NCBI GenBank assembly: GCA_964530325.1
Contig: CAZHAX010000001.1
Coordinates: 186,128 to 250,127, forward strand
DNA from: an uncultured Anaerolineales bacterium
Lineage (GTDB): Bacteria > Chloroflexota > Anaerolineae > B4-G1
Direction of reading: 5' to 3'
DNA: 64,000 bases
Shown: one piece after another, positions 2,692 to 53,457 of the stretch
How the letters are laid out: each line of letters begins with the position of its first letter
Position numbering within the stretch: position 1 is the stretch's first letter
Program-made: the position numbers and the translations under genes
The notes under the pieces: generated by a model
The model's database searches: none
The model's input: only the letters and a program-made list of their open reading frames with translations
Told to the model about the DNA's origin: nothing

Positions 2692-3900
2692 TTGTGTGTG
2701 ACCACCATAGAGAACCGGCAGATGGAAGGCGTTCAGCGGCGTTGGCGCTCCGGCGGTCGTATCTCGCGCCGCCGCTTTCTGCAGCAGGCAGGCATGGCCG
2801 CGGCTGGTCTGCTGCTCTCCGGCTGCGCTGAGGGGCCCGGTGGGGGCGATCTGCCGGCCGGCGATGGCGGTGTCCCCTTGGCCAGGGTGGGCACGGCGAG
2901 GGCCCCGAGCTACGACGAAGCGCTCGTCCGCCGGGAGCTGTCCACGATCTTTGACAACCTGGGTGGCCTGGGCGACGTCATAGGTTCGGGTGACAAGGTG
3001 GCCATCAAGACGAATCTTACCGGGGGCTCGTACCAGCGGCAGGTCGATGGTCTTCCCAATACCGAGACGTTCTTCACACACCCGGTTGTTGTGGAGGCCG
3101 TGGCGGAGCTGATGATCGACGCCGGCGCGGGCCAGGTGTGCATCGTCGAGGCGGTGTACGATTGGCCATCCTACACGCTGTTCGGCTTCGACGTGTTCGC
3201 CGAGAGGCTGGGTGCGACGCTCATCGATCTCAACGGCGCTGAGCCCTACAGCACTCTGTCACAGGACGAGGTCGGCGAGGGATGGTTCGTCTACGATCGC
3301 TTCTACTCCAACCGCATCCTGAATGAGGTGGACGTTCTGGTCTCTGTCTCCAAGATGAAGGGGCACGGGGAAGCGGGGGTGACTCACACGCTCAAGAACA
3401 TGGTCGGCTCTGTGCCCTGGCGCTTCTACGAGCTCGAGCTTCCCGGCCTGCGGGGGTACCGCTCGGAGTTCCACGGATTGGGCGACGAGACGAGGGCCCG
3501 CCTGCCGCGCGTGATAACGGACCTGAACCGCGCTCACCCTGTTGATATCGGCGTCGTCGATGGCATTAAGACGATGGAGGGGGGCGAGGGTCCCTGGATC
3601 GAGGGGGTGAGGTCGATCCAGCCGGGCGTGCTCATCGCCGGCAAGAGCGCGCTGGCAGTCGACGCGGTCGCCACGGGGGTGATGGGCTTCGACCCAACGG
3701 CCGAGTATCCTGACCCGCCGTTCCTGCACTGCGAAAACCACCTGAATCTGGCCCGCGAGCTGGGGCTGGGGACGAACAGGCTGGAGGTGATTGAAGTTGT
3801 CGGTCCCCCAATCGAGGAGCTGGTGACGCCGTTCAAGGTGGTACAGGCACCTCGCGCCGGCGCTGTGGCGGAAGCGATCTGCCCGTCAGTTGCGGGCTAG
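2692..3900 (+). CDS. DUF362-family protein with twin-arginine (Tat) signal and lipobox
   Basis: SRRRFLQQAGMAAAGLLLSGC is a Tat motif plus lipobox. Motifs KVAIKTNL, FTHP, VSVSKMKGHG are typical of DUF362. Start is ambiguous: TTG at 2692 or ATG at 2722. Confidence 0.6.
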   Translation: MCVTTIENRQMEGVQRRWRSGGRISRRRFLQQAGMAAAGLLLSGCAEGPGGGDLPAGDGGVPLARVGTARAPSYDEALVRRELSTIFDNLGGLGDVIGSGDKVAIKTNLTGGSYQRQVDGLPNTETFFTHPVVVEAVAELMIDAGAGQVCIVEAVYDWPSYTLFGFDVFAERLGATLIDLNGAEPYSTLSQDEVGEGWFVYDRFYSNRILNEVDVLVSVSKMKGHGEAGVTHTLKNMVGSVPWRFYELELPGLRGYRSEFHGLGDETRARLPRVITDLNRAHPVDIGVVDGIKTMEGGEGPWIEGVRSIQPGVLIAGKSALAVDAVATGVMGFDPTAEYPDPPFLHCENHLNLARELGLGTNRLEVIEVVGPPIEELVTPFKVVQAPRAGAVAEAICPSVAG

Positions 3901-4578: not shown

Positions 4579-5238
4579 ATGATGGACTCGAGCGTGGAAC
4601 GCATCCTACTCCATATCAATGCTGTGGCGGGCGTGACCGGCTGCTTCGTCTGCAACAAGAATGGAGAGATCGTGGCCTCCGCCCTACCCGGTATCTTTGA
4701 CCAAGTCATTCTGCGGGCCGTAGCGAAGGCTATCACCCAGACCTTTGCCGGGTTGGCGATCGCCCATCGGCGGAAGACAGCCGATATCGACCTGGTCTAC
4801 GCCGAGAACCGCCTGATCGCCAAGAGCCTGAAGGACATTTGTCTGTGCATGATCTGCGTGCGCAGCATCAACCTGCCACTCCTGAATCTGACAGCTGAGA
4901 CAGCGGCAAGAGAGCTGACGGCCGCTCTCAAAGGTGAGGTTGCGGAGAAGCCATTGCCAGGCCGTGAGGAAGGAGGGCCAGCGGCTGAGACGGTAGGGGC
5001 CGCCTTCCTCGGCCAGTTGGAGTGCGACCTGGCCAGAGCGATCGGCCCGATCGCCAATCTGGTTGTAAACGAGAAGATACAGGCCCTGGGTGAGAGTAGG
5101 GAGTCTTTCCCCTGGCGCGAGGCGAACCGCTTGATAGAAGAGGTCGGCGGCGAGATCACCGATGAGGGGAAGAGGACCCAGTTCAGCGGGGCCGCCCTGC
5201 GGGCACTGCGAGAGCAGACGAAGGGAAATGAAGCATGA
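4579..5238 (+). CDS. Roadblock/LC7 (MglB-like) domain protein, CxC/LNLTA subfamily
   Basis: MMDSSVERILLHINAVAGVTGCFVCNKNGEIVAS... is a Roadblock fold signature. The C-terminal CLCMICVRSINLPLLNLTAETAAREL is shared with paralogs at 48261, 48930 and 49845. The track ORF starts at 4342, but the upstream 79 codons are R/W-rich and non-protein-like. ATG ATG at 4579 is preferred. Confidence 0.65.
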   Translation: MMDSSVERILLHINAVAGVTGCFVCNKNGEIVASALPGIFDQVILRAVAKAITQTFAGLAIAHRRKTADIDLVYAENRLIAKSLKDICLCMICVRSINLPLLNLTAETAARELTAALKGEVAEKPLPGREEGGPAAETVGAAFLGQLECDLARAIGPIANLVVNEKIQALGESRESFPWREANRLIEEVGGEITDEGKRTQFSGAALRALREQTKGNEA

Positions 5239-6020
5239 AGATCACAATCGGTGCCAGGCTTGGATTCGGCTTTCTGGTCATGCTCCTGCTGGTCGCCACG
5301 GCTGGCTTGACTGCCGTCATCTCTTTCGATAGACTAGCCGACCTGACCGCCGCGCTGGCTGAGGAAGGCGACGAGCTGCGGACCATCACAGATATCAGGG
5401 TGGTCGTAGCGGAAGCCCACGCTGCCTTGGAGAGGGCGATGGTGACCGGCGAAGAAGAGGATGTCGCCGCAGCCGAATTGCGGCAATCGGAGTTGCAGGA
5501 GATGGTGACGGCCTACCTGGACAGCAAGGAAGCCGCGGGGGTCGAGAATGAAGCGTTTGAGGAGCTGGAACTCGCCCAACAGTTGTTGGACGACACCCTG
5601 GAGAGCTACCTGCATGCCTCGGATCTCAGTGCCAACCTACGCCTTACAGCCTTCTCCCGGCGGCAGGAGCTGGTCGATTTCTGCCTGACGATCTTGACCG
5701 AGATTGAGAGTGAGGCCAAGGACCGGATGGCAGACGCCCTGGAGGAAATCCAGAGCGCTCAGTCCTCGCTGCTGCTGATGATGAGTGGCGTTACCGTCGT
5801 CGCTGCCGTCATAGGGGCAGGACTGGCGGTGGGGATCACCCGTAGCGTGACCGTCCCTGTGGGGAAGCTCGTCAGCGCGGCTGACAAGATCAGCACAGGT
5901 GACCTAGACGCGCTCATGGAAGTGCGGTCGCAGGACGAGATCGGTGAGTTGGCCGACTCGATGGAGCGTATGCGCGTCAGCATGAAGGCGGCCTTGGGGA
6001 GACTCAAGAAGCAGCAATAG
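5235..6020 (+). CDS. Membrane sensor with periplasmic four-helix-bundle-like domain and HAMP domain, no output domain
   Basis: TM1 (FGFLVMLLLVATAGLTAVISF), about 150-aa helical region, TM2 (VTVVAAVIGAGLAVGI), HAMP (TRSVTVPVGKLVSAADKISTGDLDALMEVRSQDEIGELADSMERMRVSM). ATGA overlap with the upstream Roadblock gene. Confidence 0.65.
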   Translation: MKITIGARLGFGFLVMLLLVATAGLTAVISFDRLADLTAALAEEGDELRTITDIRVVVAEAHAALERAMVTGEEEDVAAAELRQSELQEMVTAYLDSKEAAGVENEAFEELELAQQLLDDTLESYLHASDLSANLRLTAFSRRQELVDFCLTILTEIESEAKDRMADALEEIQSAQSSLLLMMSGVTVVAAVIGAGLAVGITRSVTVPVGKLVSAADKISTGDLDALMEVRSQDEIGELADSMERMRVSMKAALGRLKKQQ

Positions 6021-6061
6021 CCAGATGCTCTCTGAGCGGGTCAAAGGGTTGGGGGCGGTGC

Positions 6062-6502
6062 TCAGGCCGGCACCGTATCGAGCGGATCGGGAGTTGCTGG
6101 ATCGAGGCCAAGCGTGGGGGCCATATCGCGCGTCGACTGGTCGGTGATGAACTCGACCCACAACGGGAAGTGGTCTGAGATGTGGTAGGACATCTGGCGG
6201 AGGGTGATCTCCTGGTAGACCGCGCCGGCGAAATCGATCACGCCGGTGCGCCCGGTTGATTCCAGATCTAAATCGCCCATGAACCAGGCGATGTGGTCGT
6301 GGAACTCCGGATCGCTGCCGTAGGTGGTCTTGAGCCCGTGCAGCTGGGCCGGGACGATCAGGCTGGCCAGCCCTGAAGGCCGCACCCGGCGCTGGTCGTA
6401 GATGAGGGCGAGCCGCTCGGCGCTGCCGGCGAAGCGCCCCTTTTCCTCTAGCTGATCCTCTCCAGCACGACTGCCTCTCTGCCTCGGGCAGCGACTCTCC
6501 AC
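6062..6502 (-). pseudogene. Truncated paralog of endonuclease/exonuclease/phosphatase (EEP) gene 9450..10496, lacking the N-terminal catalytic half and about 100 internal residues
   Basis: The C-terminal ~90 aa are about 85% identical to the C-terminus of the 9450..10496 product (LKTTYG..DHIAWFMGD..GVIDF.GAVYQEITLRQMSY..SDHFPLWVEFITD..MAPTLGLDPATPDPL). The upstream 25 codons and the N-terminal WNIR/IAIQEV catalytic region are absent. Confidence 0.5.
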
Positions 6503-6747
6503 CCCGGCCTCGAGAGCAGCAACTCTATCAGCGTCCCGTCGCCCCGCGGGCTAAGCACTGCGTACCGTACGTGACAGGCGTCGATTTCCATCGCCCAGTC
6601 ACCAGGGCTACCCGTACAAGTGCCAGCGGTGCTTTTGTCCGCCATCTGCTCACTCCTGATCTACGGACACTAGTGTAGCAGATGGAGGCAAGTCTGTCGC
6701 CACACGGACGTGTCAACTTGTGCGAATCGGGGAATGGCCCGAAGGTG

Positions 6748-9351
6748 CTACTCGGGCTGGGTAGAGGAGAGGAGTCCCAGCTCGCGCGCCCGCGCGACTG
6801 CCTGGGTGCGGCTCCGCACCGCCAGCTTGCCGTAGATGCTGCTGCAGTGCCGCTTCACCGTGTTCAGGGCGATCACCAGCTCGTCGGCGATCTCCTGATT
6901 GGAGTAGCCGCGGCCGATCAGGATGAGGACTTCGAACTCCCGGGGAGTCAGCTGCTCGACGAGGGAGTCAGCGACGGGCGACCCGGCTGAGGCTGGTCCG
7001 AACTCCGCCAGGAGCCTCTCCACGTAGTCCGGCTCGATCGAGCCCGACGCGGCCTCGCGAAGAAGCCGGGCCATCGCCGGCCCCTCGCTCACGAAGACGC
7101 GGATGAACCCCTCCGGTGCGGCCAGCGCCAGCGCGCGCTTCAGAGAATCGAGCGCCGCTTCTCTCTCGCCCTGCGCATCCAGGGCCAGTGCCATCAGGGC
7201 CCGTATCTCGATGACAAAGGTGTAGGCTCCGCTTGCTTCGTGCAGGCCCAGCAGTGATCTCAGCGATTCCAGCGCCCCTTCCGGCTCGCCTCGGGCAATC
7301 AGTGCGCGCGCCCGCAGCGTCTCCAGGGCCTGCATGAAGGCTGAGGGCAGCGTAACGCGGTCTTCGCCAGCGGCATCGTCGCCGGGGGCGAACACGGCCT
7401 TCGTCCCCTCCACCCACCGCAGCACCTTCTCCGGCTCGCCTGCGTCAAGCTGCAGGCGAGCCCGCTGGGCGGCCCATCTGAAGTTGGCCATCGAGTGCGA
7501 GCCTTCGACTGAACTGACCTCCGCTGCCTCGCGCAGTGCCTCCCAGGCACCCTCGCTGTCGCCCCGCGCCTGCCTCAGCCGGGACATTGCCGTGTAGGCT
7601 TCGTTGAGCGTCTGTGTGGCTCCTACGCCGAGCGAGAGCTCAACAGCGTTGTCCAGCAGACGTTCTGCCTCGTCCAGCTCGTGCCGCTCGATGTGGACAC
7701 CGGCCAGTTCTACGTGGCCCGCGGCAGCCAAGGGTGTCTGCTTGGCCAGATCGATCACGGCGCGGCAGGACGCGGCCGAGTCCTGCAGCTTGCCCCGATG
7801 GTACTGAGCCAATGCCAAGGCCTCCGTGGCCTCGACCGCCAGCAGGATGTGGCCGTCTGCCAGGGCCGTCTCGCGGGCCTGTGTCGCCGCCTCTACGGCC
7901 GCGCCTAGCTGGTTGTCGAACGCAGCGAAGAAGGCCCTGGCTGTCCTGTCGATCGTATCCAGCAGGCGGGTCAGCTCATCTCGCAGCGGTTTGCTGTCTG
8001 GGGCAGGGGGCAGGGCCTCAAGGGACTTCCTGCATTCCTGCAGTGCCTGCTGGGCTGGGCCCAGGTGGCCGTTCATGAACAGCGCCCAGGCCCGGTAGAC
8101 CTGCAGACGGGGGCGGGCGCCAAGCACGTCCTCAGGCAAAGTGTCCACCCAGCGCAGCAGCGTCGTCAGCCGGGCATCGAGCTGGCCTCCGGCAGCGGCC
8201 TGCTCGGCGATGCGGGCCACCCGATCGAAGTCCTCCGCCGTCCGGGCGTGCTTGACAGCCTCGTTGAGCAGCCCTGCCCGCTCGAGCCACTCGGCGGCGC
8301 GCCGGTGGAGATCCTGAATTTGATTGTGCTGCAGGGTCTGCCCAAGCCGCTTGCGAAGAAGGTCGCGGAAGAGATGATGGTAGCGATACCATCGTTGCTC
8401 GTCATCTAGCGGTATGACGAAGAGGTTATCCCGCTCGAGGAGAGCGAGCGTTTCTGCACGCTGGCGATCGCCTGAGACGGCGTCGCCAAGAGGCCCGCAG
8501 AGCCGATCCAGTATCGAGGTCCGGATCAGGAAGGACTCGACAGCCTCCGGCTGTTGGCTGAGCACCTCTTCGATGAGATACTCGATGACGTACTGATGGC
8601 TGCCGCCAAAGGCCTGCACCACCGCGTGGCGGTCCTCGCGTCCCTTCATCGACAGCGCGGCCAGAGAAAGGCCAGCAGCCCAACCCTCGGTGCGGGCTTC
8701 GAGCGCAGCGACGTCGTCGCCTGCCAGGCCCAGGCCACAGACATCGTTCAGGAAGGTTGCTGCTTCCTGAGCGTTGAAGCGAAGGTCGCTGGCGCGGAGC
8801 TCCGTCAATTGGCCGCCGGCCCGCAGCCGGGCAACAGGCAGCGGCGGATCGGCTCTGGAAGCGATGACCACGTGGAGCTGCTCCGGCATGTGTTCAAGCA
8901 GGAAGGCCAGGAGCTCGTGAATCGACGCCTCGGTGACCAGGTGGTAGTCATCGAGGATGAGGATGATCCGCCGGGGCAGCTCTGCCAGATCGTTGATCAG
9001 CCCGGTCAGCAACAGCCGCGCCGGCGGAATCTGGGCTGCCTGCAGCAAGGCGCTGGCGCCTTCACCGATGCCCGGTTGGGCCTTCTGCAGAGCGGCGATG
9101 ACGTAGGCCCAGAATCGCGGTGCATCGTTGTCGTCTTCGTCGAGTGATAGCCAGGCGATCAGCTCCTGCCGCCCGGCTGCCCACTCGGACAGCAGCGTCG
9201 TCTTGCCGGAACCGGCAGAGGCGGACACGAGCGTGATACGGTGGCCCAGGCGCATGCCCTCATCTAGTCGCTCGATGAGGCGCGGCCGGCTCACCAGGTC
9301 GCTCCGCGGGGGCGGGGCATACAGCTTTGTGGCCAGGAGTGGTGCGCTCAT
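6748..9351 (-). CDS. MalT-like LuxR-family transcriptional regulator (AAA+/STAND ATPase, TPR-like middle, C-terminal LuxR HTH)
   Basis: N-terminus MSAPLLATKLYAPPPRSDLVSRPRLIERL...LVSASAGSGKTTLL is the MalT/GerE-type Walker A. C-terminus LTPREFEVLILIGRGYSNQEIADELVIALNTVKRHCSSIYGKL is the LuxR HTH. The ATG at 9351 is the internal Met of the track ORF. Confidence 0.85.
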   Translation of the reverse strand: MSAPLLATKLYAPPPRSDLVSRPRLIERLDEGMRLGHRITLVSASAGSGKTTLLSEWAAGRQELIAWLSLDEDDNDAPRFWAYVIAALQKAQPGIGEGASALLQAAQIPPARLLLTGLINDLAELPRRIILILDDYHLVTEASIHELLAFLLEHMPEQLHVVIASRADPPLPVARLRAGGQLTELRASDLRFNAQEAATFLNDVCGLGLAGDDVAALEARTEGWAAGLSLAALSMKGREDRHAVVQAFGGSHQYVIEYLIEEVLSQQPEAVESFLIRTSILDRLCGPLGDAVSGDRQRAETLALLERDNLFVIPLDDEQRWYRYHHLFRDLLRKRLGQTLQHNQIQDLHRRAAEWLERAGLLNEAVKHARTAEDFDRVARIAEQAAAGGQLDARLTTLLRWVDTLPEDVLGARPRLQVYRAWALFMNGHLGPAQQALQECRKSLEALPPAPDSKPLRDELTRLLDTIDRTARAFFAAFDNQLGAAVEAATQARETALADGHILLAVEATEALALAQYHRGKLQDSAASCRAVIDLAKQTPLAAAGHVELAGVHIERHELDEAERLLDNAVELSLGVGATQTLNEAYTAMSRLRQARGDSEGAWEALREAAEVSSVEGSHSMANFRWAAQRARLQLDAGEPEKVLRWVEGTKAVFAPGDDAAGEDRVTLPSAFMQALETLRARALIARGEPEGALESLRSLLGLHEASGAYTFVIEIRALMALALDAQGEREAALDSLKRALALAAPEGFIRVFVSEGPAMARLLREAASGSIEPDYVERLLAEFGPASAGSPVADSLVEQLTPREFEVLILIGRGYSNQEIADELVIALNTVKRHCSSIYGKLAVRSRTQAVARARELGLLSSTQPE

Positions 9352-9449
9352 CCCGACCCATATTACCACGGTTCGCTTCTCGCCCCAAATGGCGGGCGCG
9401 GGGGGTCAGGCTATCGGGCTGCGGCCGCTTGTCGGGCCGGTGGCCGCTT

Positions 9450-45745: not shown

Positions 45746-46447
45746 TTGGCCCCAGTCCACACCATCTTGCTCGTGGAAGGCAGAAAGCCGACTTCAGCTC
45801 AGCAGGCACCGCTTCTCAACGACCGCGGGGTGCGAGTGGCGACGGCCTGCACCAGGAGGGAGGCGTGGGCCAGGGCCCTCAAAGGGAAGCCTTCCGTGAT
45901 CGTGCTGGACTCCCCGTCTCTGCGCTTCGACTGCCCTCGCTTCTGTGAGTCGCTCCGCAAGGAGGGTATTGAGATCCCCGTGCTGATGCTTCTGCCAGCG
46001 GGGCAGAAGGCTGACCGCAGTCTTGGCGCTCGGGCGTATCTCTCGTACCCTTTCTCTCCGAGGCGGCTCGTGAACAAGATAGTGCGCCTGCTCCCGTCGC
46101 CTGATGACGAGATGATTCAGCTGGGCGACATAGCGCTGAATCTCAAGAAGAGGAACGTCGTCCGGGGTAGGCGAGAGACACATCTGACGCCCAGACAGGC
46201 TAGTCTGCTGGAGGTCTTCATGAAGCACCCCGGGGACGTGCTTACCAGGGCCTACCTCATGAAGCATGTCTGGGATACCGACTACGTAGAAGATACGCGC
46301 ACTCTGGACGTACACGTCCACTGGGTGCGCAAGGCGATCGAAGACGATCCCCGAGCCCCCAAGTGCCTGCGCACGGTGCGCGGGGTGGGCTATCGGCTGG
46401 CAGTTGAAGAAGGGAAAGAGAAGCGGAGGCGTACCAAGAGCAGCTGA
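45746..46447 (+). CDS. OmpR/PhoB-family winged-helix regulator with degenerate receiver domain
   Basis: C-terminal LTPRQASLLEVFMKHPGDVLTRAYLMKHVW...LDVHVHWVRKAI...LRTVRGVGYRL is the trans_reg_C domain. The N-terminal REC-like region is poorly conserved. Confidence 0.65.
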   Translation: MAPVHTILLVEGRKPTSAQQAPLLNDRGVRVATACTRREAWARALKGKPSVIVLDSPSLRFDCPRFCESLRKEGIEIPVLMLLPAGQKADRSLGARAYLSYPFSPRRLVNKIVRLLPSPDDEMIQLGDIALNLKKRNVVRGRRETHLTPRQASLLEVFMKHPGDVLTRAYLMKHVWDTDYVEDTRTLDVHVHWVRKAIEDDPRAPKCLRTVRGVGYRLAVEEGKEKRRRTKSS

Positions 46448-46530: not shown

Positions 46531-46558
46531 GCCCGTCCTGTAGCCAGGACGGGCTTTG
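46531..46558. terminator. Bidirectional rho-independent terminator between convergent genes
   Basis: aaaacagag gcccgtcctg tagc caggacgggc tttgta: perfect 10-bp stem flanked by an A-tract and a T-tract. Confidence 0.6.
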
Positions 46559-46605: not shown

Positions 46606-47037
46606 TCAGCACAGGGTTGCTCTTATCAATGCCACCGCCCGGCTCGTCACCCGGCGGTACGATGTTCCTGGTGGGATGCTGGCGATCAGGATCAAGTTCT
46701 CACCGTCCAGGCTGATCTCGCGGCAGACCAGTCGCGCGCCATCGCTGGTGCGTAGCGTCACTTCGTCCACGTCGGCCAGCCCCAACTGCTTCTGTGCCTC
46801 GCTGCCGGCCTTCCGCAGAACTGCTATTAGAGCCGCCGTCGTGTCGCTGCTGTACTCGGCGGGAACGGTGGCTATCGGCAGGCCCTTGGAGGAGGCCAGC
46901 ACCACGGCGCGGAAACCGCCTTCCGCGTAAGCGGCGGCCAGGGCCTCGTCCAGGGAAACTGGCTGCGACCTCTTGCCTTTCGTTCTCCTAGCGCTCATTT
47001 GCAGGACCTCCTGTGGTGTCACGTCGCTCTGTCGCAC
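46606..47037 (-). CDS. Roadblock/LC7 domain protein (MglB-like), immediately downstream of mglA
   Basis: GFRAVVLASSKGLPIATVPAEYSSDTTAALIAVL...ENLILIASIP is the Roadblock signature. 5-nt gap to mglA. Confidence 0.7.
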   Translation of the reverse strand: MRQSDVTPQEVLQMSARRTKGKRSQPVSLDEALAAAYAEGGFRAVVLASSKGLPIATVPAEYSSDTTAALIAVLRKAGSEAQKQLGLADVDEVTLRTSDGARLVCREISLDGENLILIASIPPGTSYRRVTSRAVALIRATLC

Positions 47038-47041
47038 CTGA

Positions 47042-47626
47042 CTACAGCTGCCTCTGAGCCTTGGCCACGACCAGGTTGATGATCGCCTTCAAGGTCTCGA
47101 AGACGCCCGTGCCCTCCGTAGCCACCGATTCCAAGCACGGCACTCCGTTGAAGCTGAGCTGCTGCTGCATCACGTGGACGGGCACGATGTCCAGCAGATC
47201 CCGCTTGTTGCACTGCAGCACGAGGGGCATGGTTCTGGAATCGCAGCCCAGATCCATCAGGTTCTCGTCCATATTGCGGCGCATATCGACATTGGCCCGC
47301 TCCCGATCCTGCTGGGAGTCGGCGACGAACACAATCCCGTCTGCCCCTTGCAGTACCAGCTTCCGGCTGCCTACGTAGTAGACCTGCCCTGGCACTGTGT
47401 ACAGATTGAAGCGCGGCTTGAGCCCGGCGATCTGGCCCAGCTCCAGCTGCAGAAAGTCGAAGTAGATGGTACGGTCGCCGCGCGTCTTGAGCGACACCAA
47501 CTCGCCCCGGATCTTGGGGCTTGTCTTCAGGTGGATGTACTGCAGGTTCGTCGTCTTGCCGCTGAGTGCGGGCCCGTAGTACACGATCTTGAGGTTGATC
47601 TCACGCAGCTTCCAGTTGATGAACAT
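47042..47626 (-). CDS. mglA: MglA-family Ras-like small GTPase
   Basis: [32 protein letters not shown]...[13 protein letters not shown]...YTVPGQVYY...QCNKRDL is near-collinear with M. xanthus MglA ([49 protein letters not shown]). Confidence 0.9.
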   Translation of the reverse strand: [194 protein letters not shown]

Positions 47627-47641
47627 TGGCCGTGTCCGGTT

Positions 47642-48130
47642 CTAGAGCCCGCCGAATTCCTCTTCCAGCGCGCTGGCCAGAGCTGCGCCGAAGTCCGCAC
47701 CTGGCCCATCCTGCGTGGAGACCAACATCTGCTCGAATCCCTCTGTCAACTCGTGCAGCTCGGTTGCCGCCCGTCCGGCGAAGAGCCTGACCAGGCCCAC
47801 CAACGTATCCGAGCTGAAGATAACAACCAGTATGAAGGTCCCTCCCACGTTGTACAAGTAGATGTTGTGCTTCTCTCCTTCGTGGAGAAAGGCCCCGCTG
47901 GGCTGCTCTTCTCCGATCAGCCTGTTCAGCTCGGCCGTTGCCGCCAGATCACCGGCCGCCAGGGCGGCGACAAGCGTTGGATCGGTCTCCAGTCTGCCCT
48001 GGGCGGCGACCAGCCGGCCTGTGATGTCCGCGAGCAGGACGCATTCGGCGCTCGTCTTCTCGCGCAGATGCGCCATTACTCGCTCAATCCGATCTGACAT
48101 CTCCTCTGGCAGCGCGAAGTCGCTCGTCAC
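47642..48130 (-). CDS. Roadblock/LC7 domain protein
   Basis: ECVLLADITGRLVAAQG...HNIYLYNVGGTFILVVIFS is the Roadblock fold pattern. Confidence 0.65.
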   Translation of the reverse strand: MTSDFALPEEMSDRIERVMAHLREKTSAECVLLADITGRLVAAQGRLETDPTLVAALAAGDLAATAELNRLIGEEQPSGAFLHEGEKHNIYLYNVGGTFILVVIFSSDTLVGLVRLFAGRAATELHELTEGFEQMLVSTQDGPGADFGAALASALEEEFGGL

Positions 48131-48260
48131 GTGAGTACCTCGATTCTCGGTGCTGTACCGGTGGGTTGTGCGACGCGCGGCGGCAGTTGGGCAGTTCGTT
48201 ACCGCCTCCAGCGCGGCCGTTCACTAGCGTCGCTCAGGTGTCAGGGTGCCTAGGCGATCG

Positions 48261-48752
48261 TCAGCGTCTCAGTGTCGACGCCATCATCTCGGCGCGGGTC
48301 ATCCGCCTGCCGTCTTCAGGCCCGGAGCCGTCGTCCTGCTCCGCCTTCGCGGCTGCTGCAGCCGGCGCCGGCGTCGCAGCTACTGGAGCTCCGCTCAGGT
48401 CGATCTCCTTGATGCGCTGGCGCAGCTTGCCCACAGCCACGTCCGCCGTGAGGTTCAGCAGCGGCACGTTGATGCGCCGAACGCATATAATCCCGAGCAC
48501 GCCGCCTTCGGACCCAAGCCCTTTGACGATCAGGCGGCTGTCGGCGTACAGCAGGTCGATGTCGCCAACCTTTCTGCGCCGGGCAGTGTGCAGCCCGGCA
48601 ACGGTCTGCGCCATCGTGCGCGCCACAGGCGATAGGACGGCGTCGTCAAAGACCTCCGGGAGGGCCCTGGCGAGCATTTCCCCATCGCTGTCGCAGACGA
48701 ACGAGCCGGTCACTCCGACAACGGCATTGACGTCCTGCAGTATTTCTTCCAT
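48261..48752 (-). CDS. Roadblock/LC7 domain protein, CxC/LNLTA subfamily (paralog of 4579..5238)
   Basis: MEEILQDVNAVVGVTGSFVCDSDGEMLARALP...GIICVRRINVPLLNLTADVAVGKL. Start at the internal Met (48752). Confidence 0.65.
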   Translation of the reverse strand: MEEILQDVNAVVGVTGSFVCDSDGEMLARALPEVFDDAVLSPVARTMAQTVAGLHTARRRKVGDIDLLYADSRLIVKGLGSEGGVLGIICVRRINVPLLNLTADVAVGKLRQRIKEIDLSGAPVAATPAPAAAAAKAEQDDGSGPEDGRRMTRAEMMASTLRR

Positions 48753-48929
48753 CACACTAACCTCCACTGCCAACTCGTGAGACCTGCACGCCACCGGACG
48801 CTACGTTGTGGGCGGATGCCCTCCAGGCGACACGGGTCCCAGCAGTATCCGCCTGGCTCGATCCTCGCGGTCGGTCCTGAACCTGCTCGACGCTCCACGT
48901 CCGTTCTCTGCGCTGACAACTGCACGCTG

Positions 48930-49424
48930 CTACTGTGCATCCTTTCTAGAGCTCCTGCCTGTCGACGTGCGACTGAGAACCGCCAGCATTTCTGTCTTGG
49001 TCATTGGCTCGGGAGCCGCTTTCGTGCCCGCTTGCTCACGCGGTTGTGTCTGCAGCAGGGCTCCTGCTGCTTTCATCTCCGCGATCATCTGCTCCAGCTT
49101 CCTGGCGGCGAGGTTTGCCGTGACGTTCAGAAGTGCCACGTTGATTTGGGCTATGCAGACCAGACATAGGCAGCCCTCTGTGCCCAGGGGTTTGAGTATG
49201 AGCCGGCCACCATCGTACATCAGGTCGATGTCCCCCATCTTGCTCTTCCCGTTCGTCTTGGCAGCAGCAACGATCTTCGCTACTGCCTCCATGACGGCTT
49301 GGGGGGGAGATGCCTGGCTCACGCCTGGCGACATCACGTGCTCCAAGAGCTTCCCGCCATCGGAGACGACAAAGGCGCCGATCACTCCATTAACTGCGCT
49401 GATGTCCATCAGGATGTTTCGCAT
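48930..49424 (-). CDS. Roadblock/LC7 domain protein, CxC/LNLTA subfamily
   Basis: MRNILMDISAVNGVIGAFVVSDGGKLLEH...CLCLVCIAQINVALLNVTANLAARKL. Confidence 0.65.
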   Translation of the reverse strand: MRNILMDISAVNGVIGAFVVSDGGKLLEHVMSPGVSQASPPQAVMEAVAKIVAAAKTNGKSKMGDIDLMYDGGRLILKPLGTEGCLCLVCIAQINVALLNVTANLAARKLEQMIAEMKAAGALLQTQPREQAGTKAAPEPMTKTEMLAVLSRTSTGRSSRKDAQ

Positions 49425-49448
49425 CTTGCACCGTCCTGCCTGCTGCGT

Positions 49449-49772
49449 CTAGCCAAGAGCTTCCCGCGCGCTCGAGGCGACTATCGCTGGTGAGGCTCTG
49501 TCCGCCAGGAGCAGACCTACGTAGTAGTCTGGCTGCTCCATTACGAGCACAACCTCGTTGCCAATCGTCACCGTGCCCCAGTCGAAGGGGCCGAGGGCGA
49601 GCGATTCGCTCGCCTGGCTCGCCGCGTTGCCAACGAAGACGGCGACAGCCCCTTCCTTGTCCGGACTGGCATCGTTGAGCTCGTGGGCCAGCACTATTCC
49701 ATCACGTGCAGCTATCACCACCCCGTCCACTCCATCGATCTTGCTCAACTTGGCGGCCAATTCCTGTATCAT
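49449..49772 (-). CDS. Roadblock/LC7 domain protein (minimal, 107 aa)
   Basis: KIDGVDGVVIAARDGIVLAHEL...WGTVTIGNEVVLVMEQPDYYVGLLL. Confidence 0.7.
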   Translation of the reverse strand: MIQELAAKLSKIDGVDGVVIAARDGIVLAHELNDASPDKEGAVAVFVGNAASQASESLALGPFDWGTVTIGNEVVLVMEQPDYYVGLLLADRASPAIVASSAREALG

Positions 49773-49844
49773 TCCGATGCCTCCCTTCAGCCTCCCGAGC
49801 CGTCTTGTCTGGACCGGCGCCGCCTGCCCGGATAGCGCGCTTAC

Positions 49845-50315
49845 CTAGGTCCAGAGATCGAGCACCTTCTCCAGGATGCCCTCGGTGCTCTGGGCCATGG
49901 CGGGCTCCCGCCCTGGCCCCTGCTCAGGGGATGATTGCTCTGGTATTGTCTTCCTCTTGGGTAGTTTCTTGATCATTCGTCCCAGCTTTCGGGCGGCCAC
50001 GTTGGCCGTCAGATTCACCTGCGACACGTCGGCGTGGGGAGCACACAGTATGCACAGGCAGCCCGAGCCGGAGACCTTGACGACCAGCCGTCCGTTGCTG
50101 CAGTGGAGGTCGACTTCGCCGACGTCAGACAAGCTCACGCTCTTCAAGCCGGTGACGATTTGGGCCACGCTGGACGCCGCGCACCCCTGTGCTGTACCGT
50201 TGCCGCTTCCGGGGGGCACCGCGACCGCGAGTAGCGCGCCATCCCCATCGCAGACGAATGAGCCAATCACTCCGTATATCGCGTTGATGTCACTCAGTAT
50301 GCTGTCCATCGCCAC
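49845..50315 (-). CDS. Roadblock/LC7 domain protein, CxC/LNLTA subfamily
   Basis: MAMDSILSDINAIYGVIGSFVCDGDGALLA...CLCILCAPHADVSQVNLTANVAARKL. Confidence 0.65.
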   Translation of the reverse strand: MAMDSILSDINAIYGVIGSFVCDGDGALLAVAVPPGSGNGTAQGCAASSVAQIVTGLKSVSLSDVGEVDLHCSNGRLVVKVSGSGCLCILCAPHADVSQVNLTANVAARKLGRMIKKLPKRKTIPEQSSPEQGPGREPAMAQSTEGILEKVLDLWT

Positions 50316-50328
50316 TCGTTCTGAGCTT

Positions 50329-51396
50329 CTAGTGCAAGGCTTGCTTGGCGCTGGCCGCTACGTTGGCGGCCGATGCCCTCTGGTTGAGCAGCATCCCTAC
50401 GAAGTAGTCTGGCCGCTCCATCAGCAGCATCTTCTCCTTGCCGAGCGCCACCGTGCCCCAACTGAAGCTGCCAAGAGACAGCGGCTTTCCCAGTTGGCCG
50501 GCGGCACCCAGCACGAGAACGGCTATGGAGCCCCTGTTTCCGGGCGCGTCATCCAACTCGTGGGCGACCACGGACCCGTCGTGCGCAACGACGACGACCC
50601 CTGTGACACCCTGTATATCCTTGAGAGCGCTGGCCAGGTTCGCGGCTACCTGGTCACCGTCGACTTCGGTCTCATCAGTGAGGAGCTCCAGGTCGACCAA
50701 GCCGGCCATCCCCTCGTCCATGCGGCGGGCGCCTTCCAGCAGCAGTCCGGACCAGCTGCCCTCGATCGTCCTCTTGGGAGCGGAGACGCCCATCTGCAAC
50801 TCGAATTCCCCCTCTTCCCAGGTCAGGAGCTCATAGACGGCATCCGCGCCTGTTTTCTTACCCAGGGCGGCGTGGACGACGTTGCCTTCGGCGAAGTAGA
50901 CCTTGCCTTCTTGGCCGGCCTGCCGGATCCGGAGTAGCGCCTCGTTCCGCTCTGCGCAGTTGATCTGCACGATGTTGGGCAGACTCAGGCTGCGCAGGTT
51001 GCCCTGAACGACCGCGCCACCCTTCGACTCCAGGATACGGCGCACCGCCGCCACCAGGGTCTTGGCATCGAGGGGCTTCTCCAGGAACTCGCAGGCGCCA
51101 AGCTGCAGGGCCTCGACTACGTTCTCCTTCGTGCCGTAGGCCGTGAGGATTGCGACTGAGGCCCGTGGGTTGTGCTCTCTGATCGCGGCCAGAAGCTTGA
51201 GGCCGTCCATGCCGGGCATCTTCAGGTCTGTGACCACGAGGTCGAAGTCCTCGCTCCGGTACAGCTTGATCGCGCTGGCGCCGTCCGAGGCTCCCTCGAC
51301 GGAGAAGCCTTCCAGCTGGAGTATCCTCTTGCACGTCTTGACCACGTTGGGTTCGTCGTCTACCACTAGAACGCGTTTCTGAGCCATTGCCACCAC
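50329..51396 (-). CDS. Response regulator receiver + DUF4388 (PATAN-like) + C-terminal Roadblock/LC7 domain
   Basis: REC (RVLVVDDEPNVV...LVVTDLKMPGMDG...KPL). The middle region LPNIVQINCAERNEALLRIRQAGQEGKVYFAEGNVVHAALGKKTGADAVYELLTWEEGEFEL matches the DUF4388 consensus as I recall it. The C-terminus IQGVTGVVVVAHDGSVVAHEL...WGTVALGKEKMLLMERPDYFVGMLL is a Roadblock domain closely related to 49449..49772. Confidence 0.75.
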   Translation of the reverse strand: MVAMAQKRVLVVDDEPNVVKTCKRILQLEGFSVEGASDGASAIKLYRSEDFDLVVTDLKMPGMDGLKLLAAIREHNPRASVAILTAYGTKENVVEALQLGACEFLEKPLDAKTLVAAVRRILESKGGAVVQGNLRSLSLPNIVQINCAERNEALLRIRQAGQEGKVYFAEGNVVHAALGKKTGADAVYELLTWEEGEFELQMGVSAPKRTIEGSWSGLLLEGARRMDEGMAGLVDLELLTDETEVDGDQVAANLASALKDIQGVTGVVVVAHDGSVVAHELDDAPGNRGSIAVLVLGAAGQLGKPLSLGSFSWGTVALGKEKMLLMERPDYFVGMLLNQRASAANVAASAKQALH

Positions 51397-51425: not shown

Positions 51426-52455
51426 CTAGCCGTCAAGCTCCGGCGGAATGATTCCCTTTGCCACTGCCGATTCATAGTCCAGCAGCTCTCTGTCCTCCTC
51501 GTCTCCGTAGAGGTCCTGTGCCTCGAGTTCCTTCCGGCTGGGGCCCGGAGCCGGCGCGGCGGCGGGCCTGGCCTCACCTGATGCCTCAGACAGCACCGCA
51601 TCAAGCTCTGCCATCAGCGAGGAGCCGAACTCCGCGTCCAGTACCTGAGCGGGCACGCTGGCCGTGCTGTCAGCCAGCGTGTTCATCAGGCTCTCGACCG
51701 CTCTCCTGGTGTAGAGCCACACAAGCCCAATCCGGCTTGCCTGGGCCTTCCGATCGTAGACGATGGCCAGGAAGAAGTCCTCCCCCACGTTGGCGGAGTA
51801 GATCTCGTAGCGCGCACCCTCGTGGAAATTGAGGTTGATCGCATTGCCACTGCCGAAGTACTCGGCCAGCCCTCTGGCGGTAGCGAAGCCGCCTGCCAAC
51901 AGCGAAAGCAGGGCAGAGGGATCCGGCCCCAGCTGGCCCCCGGCCTGTGCCAGGCGCTGGCCCAGCATGTCCGCCAGATGTATCGACTGGGCGCCGATCT
52001 CACGCCGCAGCTCCTCCAGGTGCTTGGTGATCTCCTCAAAGGTCTGATCCGAGAGGATGACCAGGCCCGGTTGGCTCATCGCCTCGTCCGGAAGAGCCCT
52101 CTGGACCGCCTTCATGAGCACGTCCACCTTGAGGGGCTTGGAGATGTATCCGGCTACACCCAGGCTGCGGGCCTCTTCCTCGATCGCGCTGCTGCCGTAT
52201 GCGGTCACCAGAATCGAGCGCGTCTCCGGGCTGGAGGTCTTCACCTGCCGAATCAGCTCCAGGCCGCTGATCCCCGGCATTCTCAGGTCCGTGACCATCA
52301 GGTCCACGTCTTCCTTCGAGATGGCTTGCAGCGCCTCCTCGCCGGACTCGACTACCGTGACCCTGTAGGTCTGGTTCGAGCGCTCCAGCACCTTCTTCAG
52401 AAAGGCCGCTACCGACGGCTCGTCGTGCGCAATGAGGATGTGTTTCTGGGCCATT
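51426..52455 (-). CDS. Response regulator receiver + Roadblock-like C-terminal domain
   Basis: REC (HILIAHDEPSVAAFL...LMVTDLRMPGISG...KPL). C-terminal FHEGARYEIYSANVGEDFFLAIVY is Roadblock-like. ATG at 52455 is the internal Met of the track ORF. Confidence 0.7.
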
Positions 52456-52608
52456 TGCCTATATCTGCTCTCGCGGAAGCAGTACCGAGCCGTTTGGCCC
52501 TGGCTTCCGTCAGCATCTCTATCAACAATATAGCACAAGGGGCACGGTTTGTGGGTTCCGAGAACCTCCCACACAGGGTGCAGTTACGTTCCGGCAGGCG
52601 TAGCCTGC

Positions 52609-53457
52609 CTACTGCTTCTGATGGCTCTCGGGGGGAGGGGACGGGGCGCAGACAGCGTAGCCGCTGCCGCGCACCGTAAGGACCACGGGGGGGTCGTCCG
52701 GGCGGGGCTCCAGCTTCTGCCGCAGACGATGGATGTGCGTCCGCAGCAAGACCCGCGCATCGCGCTCGTCGAGTTCGTAGCCTCGAATGTGCAGGACGAG
52801 CTCCCGGCAAGAGATGACCCTGTCCCGGTGGCGGATGAGATACGCCAGGATGTCGAACTCGGTTGGCGTCAGCTCGACAGGCTGGCCACGCAGCACCACG
52901 AGGCGCCTCAGGCTGTCCACAGTCACATCCGCCACTTGGAGGAAACGCTCGACCGGAGCCTGAGCATCCGGCCGCTGGGGGCTATCCCTGAGAGTGACGA
53001 GGACTCTCTCCAGGAGCTTCACCGGCTCATCGTCGTGCAACCTGCGGCTGCGCTCCGCCAGGCCGGCCTCTACGGCTCTGGCGATTTCATCTGTGGAAGA
53101 CGGCTTGAGCAGATAGTCGAAGGCGCCGTGCCGGATGGCAACGATGGCCGAATCGAGCGAGCCGTAGCCTGTGAGGATGACAAAGACCGTGTCCGGGGCC
53201 ATCCTGCAGGCCCGCTGAAGAACGTCGGTCCCCTCCATGTGCGGCAGCTTGAGGTCGAGGACGACGAGATCGAAGATCTCAGATTCGATCTGATCCAACG
53301 CCGCCTTGCCTGTGGCCGCCTCACTAGCGTCGTACCCCATGTGGCGGAAGAGCCCGGTCAGCGTCCGGCGTATAGCCTGGTCGTCGTCCACCACCAGGAT
53401 TCGCGGTCGGGCCGTGGTCGAGCGCTCTAGACTCTCGGCCTGTCTTGAGGTGACCAT
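52609..53457 (-). CDS. OmpR-family response regulator
   Basis: REC (RILVVDDDQAIRRTL...LVVLDLKLPHMEG...KP) + trans_reg_C (LTPTEFDILAYLIRHRDRVISCRELV...LRTHIHRLRQKL...VLTVRGSGY). Confidence 0.85.
   Translation of the reverse strand: MVTSRQAESLERSTTARPRILVVDDDQAIRRTLTGLFRHMGYDASEAATGKAALDQIESEIFDLVVLDLKLPHMEGTDVLQRACRMAPDTVFVILTGYGSLDSAIVAIRHGAFDYLLKPSSTDEIARAVEAGLAERSRRLHDDEPVKLLERVLVTLRDSPQRPDAQAPVERFLQVADVTVDSLRRLVVLRGQPVELTPTEFDILAYLIRHRDRVISCRELVLHIRGYELDERDARVLLRTHIHRLRQKLEPRPDDPPVVLTVRGSGYAVCAPSPPPESHQKQ

Follow-up and report, generated by a model that had tools for sequence, protein, structure and literature searches.

A Roadblock/LC7 subfamily missed by current domain models is encoded next to PATAN-Roadblock genes in Anaerolineae and distant relatives

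Four genes in a 64,000-nucleotide (nt) stretch of DNA from an uncultured Anaerolineales bacterium (contig CAZHAX010000001.1, positions 186,128 to 250,127; hereafter the window) encode an unmodeled Roadblock subfamily that has its own signature and a conserved candidate partner, the PATAN-Roadblock protein. The Roadblock/LC7 fold that these proteins adopt is known; the subfamily and its proposed partnership are new. Roadblock proteins are universal platforms for small GTPases, from bacterial MglB to the eukaryotic Ragulator, and PATAN proteins steer the polarity of type IV pili. We know of no PATAN partners outside cyanobacteria. A Roadblock family that is missed by current domain models and that follows PATAN-Roadblock genes in three phyla provides a concrete candidate partner, and yields a testable heterodimer hypothesis for PATAN-Roadblock modules, which are widespread and uncharacterized. 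The reading that we favor, with a probability of roughly 0.6, is that the new proteins, here called Cys-Roadblock proteins, are Roadblock heterodimer partners of PATAN-Roadblock proteins in a polarity module with variable outputs, and that their cysteines are residues of the protein core.

The four paralogs carry the following features.

4579–5238, plus strand: W4579, 219 amino acids (aa); Cys-Roadblock domain at residues 1–120, with cysteines at 22, 25, 88, 90, and 93.
Residues 141–218 of W4579, plus strand: C-terminal four-helix domain, as predicted in the AlphaFold2 model.
48261–48752, minus strand: W48261, 163 aa; cysteines at 20 and 90 only, without the C-x-C pair (GVLGIIC).
After the core of W48261, minus strand: tail with a disordered Pro/Ala linker and then a terminal helix, RRMTRAEMMASTLRR.
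48930–49424, minus strand: W48930, 164 aa; C85, C87, and C90, with Val at the β1 Cys position.
48930–49010, minus strand: tail of W48930, containing EPMTKTEMLAVL.
49845–50315, minus strand: W49845, 156 aa; β1 Cys and C-L-C-I-L-C; a REC-PATAN-Roadblock gene lies 13 nt upstream.

All four are present as open reading frames (ORFs), and they share a C-terminal block, as the initial annotation had proposed. The start of W48261 is the ATG at 48752 (MEEILQD...), which matches all homologs; a GTG at 48794 only opens the longest ORF. The block has the pattern [GI]-x-L-x-x-x-C-x(4)-[ND]-x-x-[LQ]-[LV]-N-[LV]-T-A-x-x-A-x-x-[KE]-L, and its positions and cysteine segments are listed below.

4837–4917, plus strand: W4579 block; I-C-L-C-M-I-C.
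48423–48503, minus strand: W48261 block; G-V-L-G-I-I-C.
49095–49175, minus strand: W48930 block; G-C-L-C-L-V-C.
49983–50063, minus strand: W49845 block; G-C-L-C-I-L-C.

The motif C-L-C-x-x-C, which had been ascribed to all four proteins as C-L-C-x-I/V-C, is present in three of them but not in W48261. The third and last of the block cysteines is the only one common to the four. An additional N-terminal Cys, in the sequence F-V-C, is found in every paralog except W48930, which has Val there. When a family hidden Markov model (HMM) was run against the six-frame translation of the window, precisely these four paralogs were found, with E values of 1e-50 to 2e-62. As judged from the sequences, the similarity among the paralogs is homology, far above chance.

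Since three of the four genes lie inside ~2 kb, one might suspect that the block is a by-product of recent duplication within this genome and has no family-level meaning. Such an artefact is ruled out by the low identity of the paralogs, whose cores are merely 33–53% identical, and by the retention of the block in hundreds of sequence clusters and in 54 genome loci. In addition, every paralog has its own orthologs in other assemblies. The chance that duplication alone accounts for the block is negligible.

The location of the block within the protein was examined with structure models. W4579 was modeled by AlphaFold2 from a 94-sequence alignment, and the mean predicted local distance difference test (pLDDT) score is 89. 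The elements of the model are α1 (residues 4–14), β1 (19–26), β2 (31–35), α2 (42–63), β3 (70–74), β4 (77–84), β5 (87–94), and α3 (99–117), and the core of the W48261 model is the same. Both models follow the α-β-β-α-β-β-β(-α) order of the Roadblock/LC7 fold, which in MglB comprises a five-stranded antiparallel sheet with α2 on one side and α1 and α3 on the other (PMC3199381). In the models, the block is β5 (C-L-C-x-x-C-V), a four-residue turn, and α3 (L-L-N-L-T-A-N-V-A-A-K-K-L). The proposal that the block extends beyond the Roadblock core is therefore not borne out; the block lies within the fold. The block had looked as though it were beyond the core because the Pfam Robl_LC7 model, with 91 positions, stops at β5. 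The sub-threshold match of this model to W48930 ends at residue 89.

Comparison with known structures leads to the same placement. A Foldseek search of the PDB with the W4579 model retrieved LAMTOR2, Myxococcus xanthus MglB, Asgard Roadblock proteins, p14/MP1, and Thermus thermophilus MglB. The best structural match is LAMTOR2 (5y3a_G; E 1.5e-07), with a template modeling (TM) score of 0.83. The top matches, LAMTOR2 and M. xanthus MglB, have TM scores of 0.83 and root-mean-square deviations (rmsd) of 1.8–3.2 Å; for the M. xanthus MglB structure 6hjm, the values are 0.83 and 1.8 Å across ~125 columns. Over the MglB, LAMTOR2, and Asgard Roadblock structures, the TM scores range from 0.75 to 0.85. 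The Asgard Roadblock structure 7yh1 could be aligned end to end with the family profile (profile positions 2–110). With hhalign, the family profile and the MglB-like protein encoded in the same operon (described below) aligned in the block only, which was paired with VIFSSDTLVGLVRLFAGRAATELH; the probability was 0.3, which is non-significant overall and serves as a hint. In a MAFFT alignment, the three block Cys positions are I, V, and F in that protein. Thus, the claim that canonical MglB lacks the block does not hold, since the Foldseek, 7yh1, and hhalign comparisons place the same β5-α3 element in MglB and LAMTOR2.

Although the fold is familiar, the sequences lie outside current models. 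The Pfam Robl_LC7 model (PF03259; cutoff 23 bits) gives 17.2 bits for W48930, 14.5 for W48261, and 12.9 for W4579, and no match for W49845. None of the 120 relatives listed has a Pfam match on its N-terminal domain in precomputed annotation. A scan of NCBIfam, including the MglB model NF052242, gave no match for the four paralogs; the MglB-like neighbor at 47642–48130 matches NF052242 at 8e-16, which is under the cutoff of that model. Conversely, the family HMM matches no other Roadblock ORF in the window, the neighbor at 47642–48130 included. The Cys-Roadblock proteins are not MglB orthologs: they fall short of the sequence models, and the operon holds a canonical MglB-like gene of its own. 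Database labels for relatives are "roadblock/LC7 domain-containing protein" and, from JGI, the COG2018-type "predicted regulator of Ras-like GTPase activity." Literature searches on the motif, on Cys-rich Roadblock proteins, and on PATAN proteins with Roadblock partners returned nothing specific, and querying the PDB with the sequence of a distant member gave no matches other than low-complexity ones to ribosomal P proteins. The suggestion of a distinct subfamily is upheld by these results.

The family is also large. A word-indexed search with the profile retrieved at least 334 clusters at 90% identity, and nearly all are from metagenome-assembled genomes (MAGs) of Anaerolineae/Chloroflexota. 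Among the 120 matches listed, all that could be scored have C-x-C-x-x-C or a variant that lacks a single Cys, together with N-L-T-[AV]. An exhaustive HMMER search, covering 1.84 billion representatives at 50% identity, found 658 representatives at E ≤ 1e-3, 206 at E ≤ 1e-10, and 22 at E ≤ 1e-30. The motif is therefore found outside this genome in hundreds of proteins, and in close orthologs the cysteines are conserved, as the subfamily proposal of the initial annotation required. Distant members occur in Geobacter, Trichlorobacter lovleyi, Oryzomonas, Desulfuromonadales, and Anaeromyxobacteraceae, such that the wider family reaches Geobacterales. A scan for two signature peptides, using one genome per species, yielded 54 loci, of which 52 are in Anaerolineae/Chloroflexota MAGs and two are in MAGs labeled Acidobacteria. 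We are close to certain that these proteins have the Roadblock fold and make up a distinct, widespread, and previously unmodeled family. The two Acidobacteria-labeled contigs with the narrow signature (L016, CAIWXX010000053.1, and L045, JBLMXX010000103.1) could reflect mis-binning or horizontal transfer.

Three of the four genes belong to a minus-strand unit of nine genes in the order REC-Roadblock, REC-PATAN-Roadblock, W49845, Robl107, W48930, W48261, MglB-like, MglA-type GTPase, and Robl143. Between 52574 and 46606, a scan found no minus-strand terminator inside the unit. The features that accompany the Cys-Roadblock genes are as follows.

51426–52574, minus strand: REC-Roadblock (MglB-like) response regulator; opens the unit.
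50329–51396, minus strand: REC-PATAN(DUF4388)-Roadblock response regulator, 355 aa; conserved upstream neighbor of the Cys-Roadblock family.
49449–49772, minus strand: Robl107, a stand-alone Roadblock protein, 107 aa; W48930 begins 24 nt downstream.
47642–48130, minus strand: canonical MglB-like Roadblock protein, 162 aa; Robl_LC7 40.4 bits; weak NCBIfam MglB match.
47042–47626, minus strand: MglA-type small Ras-like GTPase, 194 aa; GPALSGKT P-loop, TVPGQ, and NKRD.
46606–47037, minus strand: Robl143, a third canonical Roadblock protein; closes the unit.
46531–46554, minus strand: strong terminator-like hairpin directly after Robl143; 10-bp stem with 8 G-C pairs.
5235–6020, plus strand: HAMP-domain membrane protein, 261 aa; the gene overlaps that of W4579 by 4 nt, at the stop codon.

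Robl107 duplicates, as a stand-alone protein, the Roadblock domain at the C terminus of the PATAN protein (49449–49772 versus 50329–50650; phmmer 4.6e-31). Each Roadblock domain of this partner type in the window precedes a Cys-Roadblock gene, with gaps of 13 nt for W49845 and 24 nt for W48930. The TVPGQ sequence of the GTPase conforms to TxxGQ, a hallmark of MglA (PMC3199381).

This arrangement recurs in other genomes. Pairing was counted at the 49 of 54 loci that have enough upstream DNA, and the first family gene was scored at each. The gene directly upstream encodes a PATAN-Roadblock or Robl107-like protein in 41 of these 49 Chloroflexota loci (37 PATAN-Roadblock and four Robl107-like). 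The PATAN-Roadblock neighbors are found with or without a receiver domain, and the gaps are mostly 1–20 nt. In the distant branch, the gene for a ~240-aa PatA_N protein lies 6–25 nt upstream of the family gene in all four locus types checked, which are T. lovleyi, two other Geobacterales-type loci, and one Anaeromyxobacteraceae locus. At these four locus types no GTPase gene is found near the pair, which is surrounded by housekeeping genes. An MglA-like GTPase gene and an MglB-like gene occur inside 6 kb at 27 of the 54 loci. The conserved unit is therefore the pair of PATAN-Roadblock and Cys-Roadblock genes, because the pairing holds in Chloroflexota and in the distant loci and the GTPase is present in only half of the 54. 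In the literature searched, neither a downstream Roadblock partner gene of PATAN proteins nor the subfamily itself is described.

An alternative explanation for the operon is that Cys-Roadblock proteins are additional MglB-type GTPase-activating proteins (GAPs), which would function as homodimers directly on the MglA-like GTPase, and that their proximity to PATAN genes is incidental. Their fold is identical to that of MglB, the JGI label given above points to Ras-like GTPases, and half of the loci have the GTPase and an MglB-like gene nearby. Furthermore, the tethered helix at the C terminus of some members (see below) resembles the C-terminal helix of MglB, which reportedly regulates MglA according to work by Baranwal and colleagues from 2019. 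However, a canonical MglB-like gene already adjoins the GTPase gene in the window and in relatives, and in the Geobacterales and Anaeromyxobacteraceae loci the PATAN and family pair exists with no GTPase nearby. The linkage to PATAN-Roadblock genes (41/49) is also tighter than the linkage to the GTPase (27/54), and sequence similarity to MglB is lacking apart from β5-α3. We consider it unlikely that these proteins are simply extra GAPs.

The cysteines had been suggested to form a metal, redox, or lipidation site. Their conservation was assessed in a close set, composed of the 120 closest relatives listed and the four window paralogs (n = 124), and in a wide set, composed of the best 150 of the 658 representatives, which were profile-aligned and binned by rank. 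In the close set, the β1 Cys (C20) is conserved in 114 of 124 sequences, the first block Cys (C1, C85) in 119, the second (C2, C87) in 123, and the third (C3, C90) in all 124. Almost every other core position is equally well conserved in this set. The wide set separates the four positions, as listed here for ranks 1–30, 31–90, and 91–150, respectively.

C3 (third Cys, β5): 90%, 93%, and 89%; replaced by G/T/S/A.
β1 Cys: 83%, 73%, and 67%; replaced by F/A/V/Y.
C1: 67%, 31%, and 5%; replaced by F/I/Y/V/L.
C2: 60%, 29%, and 11%; replaced by V/L/A/F.

Because C1 and C2 decay with distance and are replaced by hydrophobic residues, they are best described, on the basis of the alignments and models, as ordinary buried hydrophobic positions that are lost independently. 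The patterns of the β1 Cys, C1, C2, and C3 among 140 representatives support independent loss: C--C is the most frequent (58), followed by ---C (27), CCCC (15), C-CC (10), and CC-C (10). Three or four ligand cysteines are thus not conserved jointly, and only the 15 CCCC representatives carry all four.

The geometry in the models is likewise unfavorable for a common site. The conserved cysteines reside in the regular strands β1 and β5, and helices cover both faces of the sheet (AlphaFold2 models; PMC3199381). In a regular strand, residues i and i + 2 are on one face and residue i + 5 is on the opposite face, and therefore C1 and C2 should not share a ligand sphere with C3. A shared metal site is unlikely on these grounds. 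A 3–4 Cys metal site as a property of the family or of the four paralogs was a tempting but weakly founded idea, and this analysis argues against it: the window paralogs have one block Cys in common, the C-x-C residues persist in only 5–11% of distant relatives, and the predicted side chains point to opposite faces. The cysteines are probably structural residues, acting mainly in core packing. Lipidation is rejected by sequence position, since all the conserved cysteines are internal strand residues. The paralogs have no lipobox, signal peptide, or terminal Cys, and their N termini (MExILxDIN) form helix α1.

A narrower version of the metal or redox hypothesis applies to Anaerolineae alone, where the β1 Cys and the C-x-C pair could form a thiol cluster (a metal site, an Fe-S site, or a disulfide switch) that makes the Roadblock protein sensitive to redox state or metals. 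The antiparallel Roadblock sheet has the strand order 21543 (SCOP fold description). In this order the end of β1 lies beside the start of β5. Judging from the strand limits, the β1 Cys could then be a cross-strand neighbor of C1, and the β1 Cys, C1, and C2 could cluster at one end of the β1-β5 pair in the Anaerolineae branch. Each of the four positions is 92–100% conserved in the close set, and in an anaerobic host lineage thiols would remain reduced. The Cys content is also about three times background: the cores of W4579 and W49845 contain 4–4.8% Cys, compared with ~1.4% for window ORFs and 0–1.4% for the other Roadblock paralogs. Nevertheless, the cluster is not common even to the paralogs of one genome, since C1 and C2 are missing from W48261 and the β1 Cys is missing from W48930. 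C1 and C2 are lost independently to bulky hydrophobic residues, C90 is five residues past C85 and so faces the other way, all the positions lie in strands buried beneath helices, and no conserved His or Asp is nearby to serve as a co-ligand. These points make a thiol cluster quite unlikely. Mutual information between the β1 and β5 columns was weak and dominated by phylogeny (best pair, columns 18 and 88, 0.16), and was not used.

A bolder form of the idea would combine the cysteines with the gene pairing. The PATAN-Roadblock and Cys-Roadblock genes would then be an ancient two-gene module encoding an obligate heterodimer, in which the thiols of β5 and β1, joined in Anaerolineae by those of the C-x-C pair, act as a sensor that couples redox state to polarity. 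If this were true, then a thiol-sensor module would span Chloroflexota, Geobacterales, and Myxococcota, and would tie redox to MglA and type IV pilus polarity in anaerobes. We regard this scenario as very unlikely.

The regions that follow the Roadblock core are diverse. They had been described as variable charged tails, and it is correct that the extensions differ; however, W48261 and W48930 share a conserved peptide, and W4579 instead has its folded four-helix domain. The shared terminal peptide, [RK][RK]-M-T-[LR]-A-E-[MIV]-[MIL]-A-A-N-[LI]-R-R (form KMTLAEMMAANLRR), follows a disordered Pro/Glu/Ala linker. It is present at the extreme C terminus of at least 59 of the 120 relatives and of W48261 (48261–48310), and more weakly of W48930. 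In the W48261 model the peptide is a helix at residues 153–161 with a pLDDT of ~73, and the linker is below 50. Such a helix may be a tethered interaction or membrane-targeting element.

Other members carry larger additions. Precomputed annotation of an identical protein (P0030) places PF26309 on the C-terminal domain of W4579, and the local Pfam scan of W4579 did not report this family even at E ≤ 10. A gene for a HAMP membrane protein follows every W4579-type gene elsewhere (7/7 loci). Many Chloroflexota relatives (for example at loci L017, L020, L021, L026, and L028) are 370–450 aa long, with the family gene at ~6001–7170. In these long proteins, Cys-Roadblock is fused to a ~250-aa C-terminal domain that ends ...APKSLRWQxRARxGExRxWYExPE, for which Pfam gave just a weak match, in one protein, to NTP_transf_5 (uncharacterized nucleotidyltransferase).

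Roadblock dimers, whether homomeric or heteromeric, form through α2/β3, and MglA binds the α2 side of the dimer; MP1-p14 and the MglB dimer are precedents (PMC3199381). PATAN domains of Synechocystis bind the motor ATPase of the type IV pilus, and receiver domains often control PATAN proteins (10.1101/2021.06.11.447907). Homologs of MglA and MglB are regularly encoded near PATAN proteins (10.1101/2021.06.11.447907; PMC4316618).

The four genes encode a branch of the Roadblock/LC7 (MglB-like) fold family that has diverged in sequence, and in the explanation that we favor this branch would be dedicated to partnership with PATAN-Roadblock proteins. Each Cys-Roadblock protein would form a heterodimer through α2/β3 with the Roadblock domain encoded just upstream, which in the window would be REC-PATAN-Roadblock for W49845 and stand-alone Robl107 for W48930. 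By analogy with the precedents above, we lean slightly toward such heterodimerization. The heterodimer may then serve as a platform in a polarity or motility module of the MglA/MglB small-GTPase type, joining the PATAN protein with the GTPase or with further targets; the connection to a GTPase or to type IV pilus polarity is inferred. The variable C terminus would provide output or targeting, through the terminal helix (KMTxAEMMAANLRR), through the four-helix domain together with the HAMP protein, or through the nucleotidyltransferase-like domain found elsewhere. The cysteines would be small hydrophobic core residues of β1 and β5 that are enriched in this anaerobe lineage, and not common metal ligands.

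Several observations weigh against this mechanism. In eight of the 49 loci, and also for W4579, the gene directly upstream is neither of the PATAN nor of the Robl107-like type, and therefore some members act without an adjacent partner. W48261 is preceded by another family member rather than by a gene of the partner type. The enrichment of Cys (4–4.8% versus ~1.4%) is only loosely explained by a role as core residues. Finally, C3 remains at ~90% across three phyla and accepts only small replacements, which is stronger conservation than a generic core position would show. This residue may have a specific role beyond core packing.

Some further features of the window were noted near these genes. 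Long antisense ORFs of 200–350 aa lie opposite the Roadblock/GTPase operon, all on the plus strand (47174–48097, 49876–50937, 48166–48780, and 48808–49452), and most likely do not encode proteins but result from the 65% G+C content. The operon is flanked by OmpR-type response regulators (REC + Trans_reg_C) at 45746–46447 (plus strand) and 52609–53457 (minus strand), and receiver domains are unusually dense around it, with four in ~8 kb. W4579 is flanked by a MalT-like STAND/LuxR regulator (AAA_16, TPR_MalT, GerE) at 6748–9369 (minus strand) and by a DUF362 protein at 2692–3900 (plus strand).

Four known systems resemble the one described here. MglB, the GAP of MglA in M. xanthus and T. thermophilus, has the same α1-β1-β2-α2-β3-β4-β5-α3 fold. 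As with MglB, a Cys-Roadblock gene can share an operon with an MglA-type GTPase gene, and its product can carry a C-terminal extension after α3. In contrast, Cys-Roadblock proteins have no significant sequence similarity to MglB and bear their own signature, GCLCILCVRRINVPLLNLTANVAAKKL. Their main neighbor is the PATAN-Roadblock gene rather than mglA, and a separate MglB-like gene is present in the operon. PATAN proteins, which are the conserved neighbors of the family, control type IV pilus polarity and often have MglA/MglB homologs encoded nearby, but Cys-Roadblock itself has no PATAN domain.

MglC of M. xanthus is described as a non-GAP paralog of MglB, an accessory Roadblock protein that binds other proteins of the polarity module (PMC4719450, PMC7949163). 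Cys-Roadblock is likewise proposed to be an accessory Roadblock subunit; neither PATAN linkage nor Cys richness is described for MglC. No MglC chain was found in the PDB by the family profile at E ≤ 10.

The Ragulator proteins LAMTOR2/p14 and LAMTOR3/MP1 are eukaryotic and have no sequence relationship to Cys-Roadblock. Moreover, the partner domain here belongs to a PATAN fusion, which may or may not include a receiver domain, and the heterodimer is predicted from genes and fold. Even so, LAMTOR2 is the best structural match, and the window has adjacent genes for two different kinds of Roadblock protein. LAMTOR2/3 thus offers a precedent for an obligate heterodimer of different Roadblock proteins that scaffolds small GTPases.

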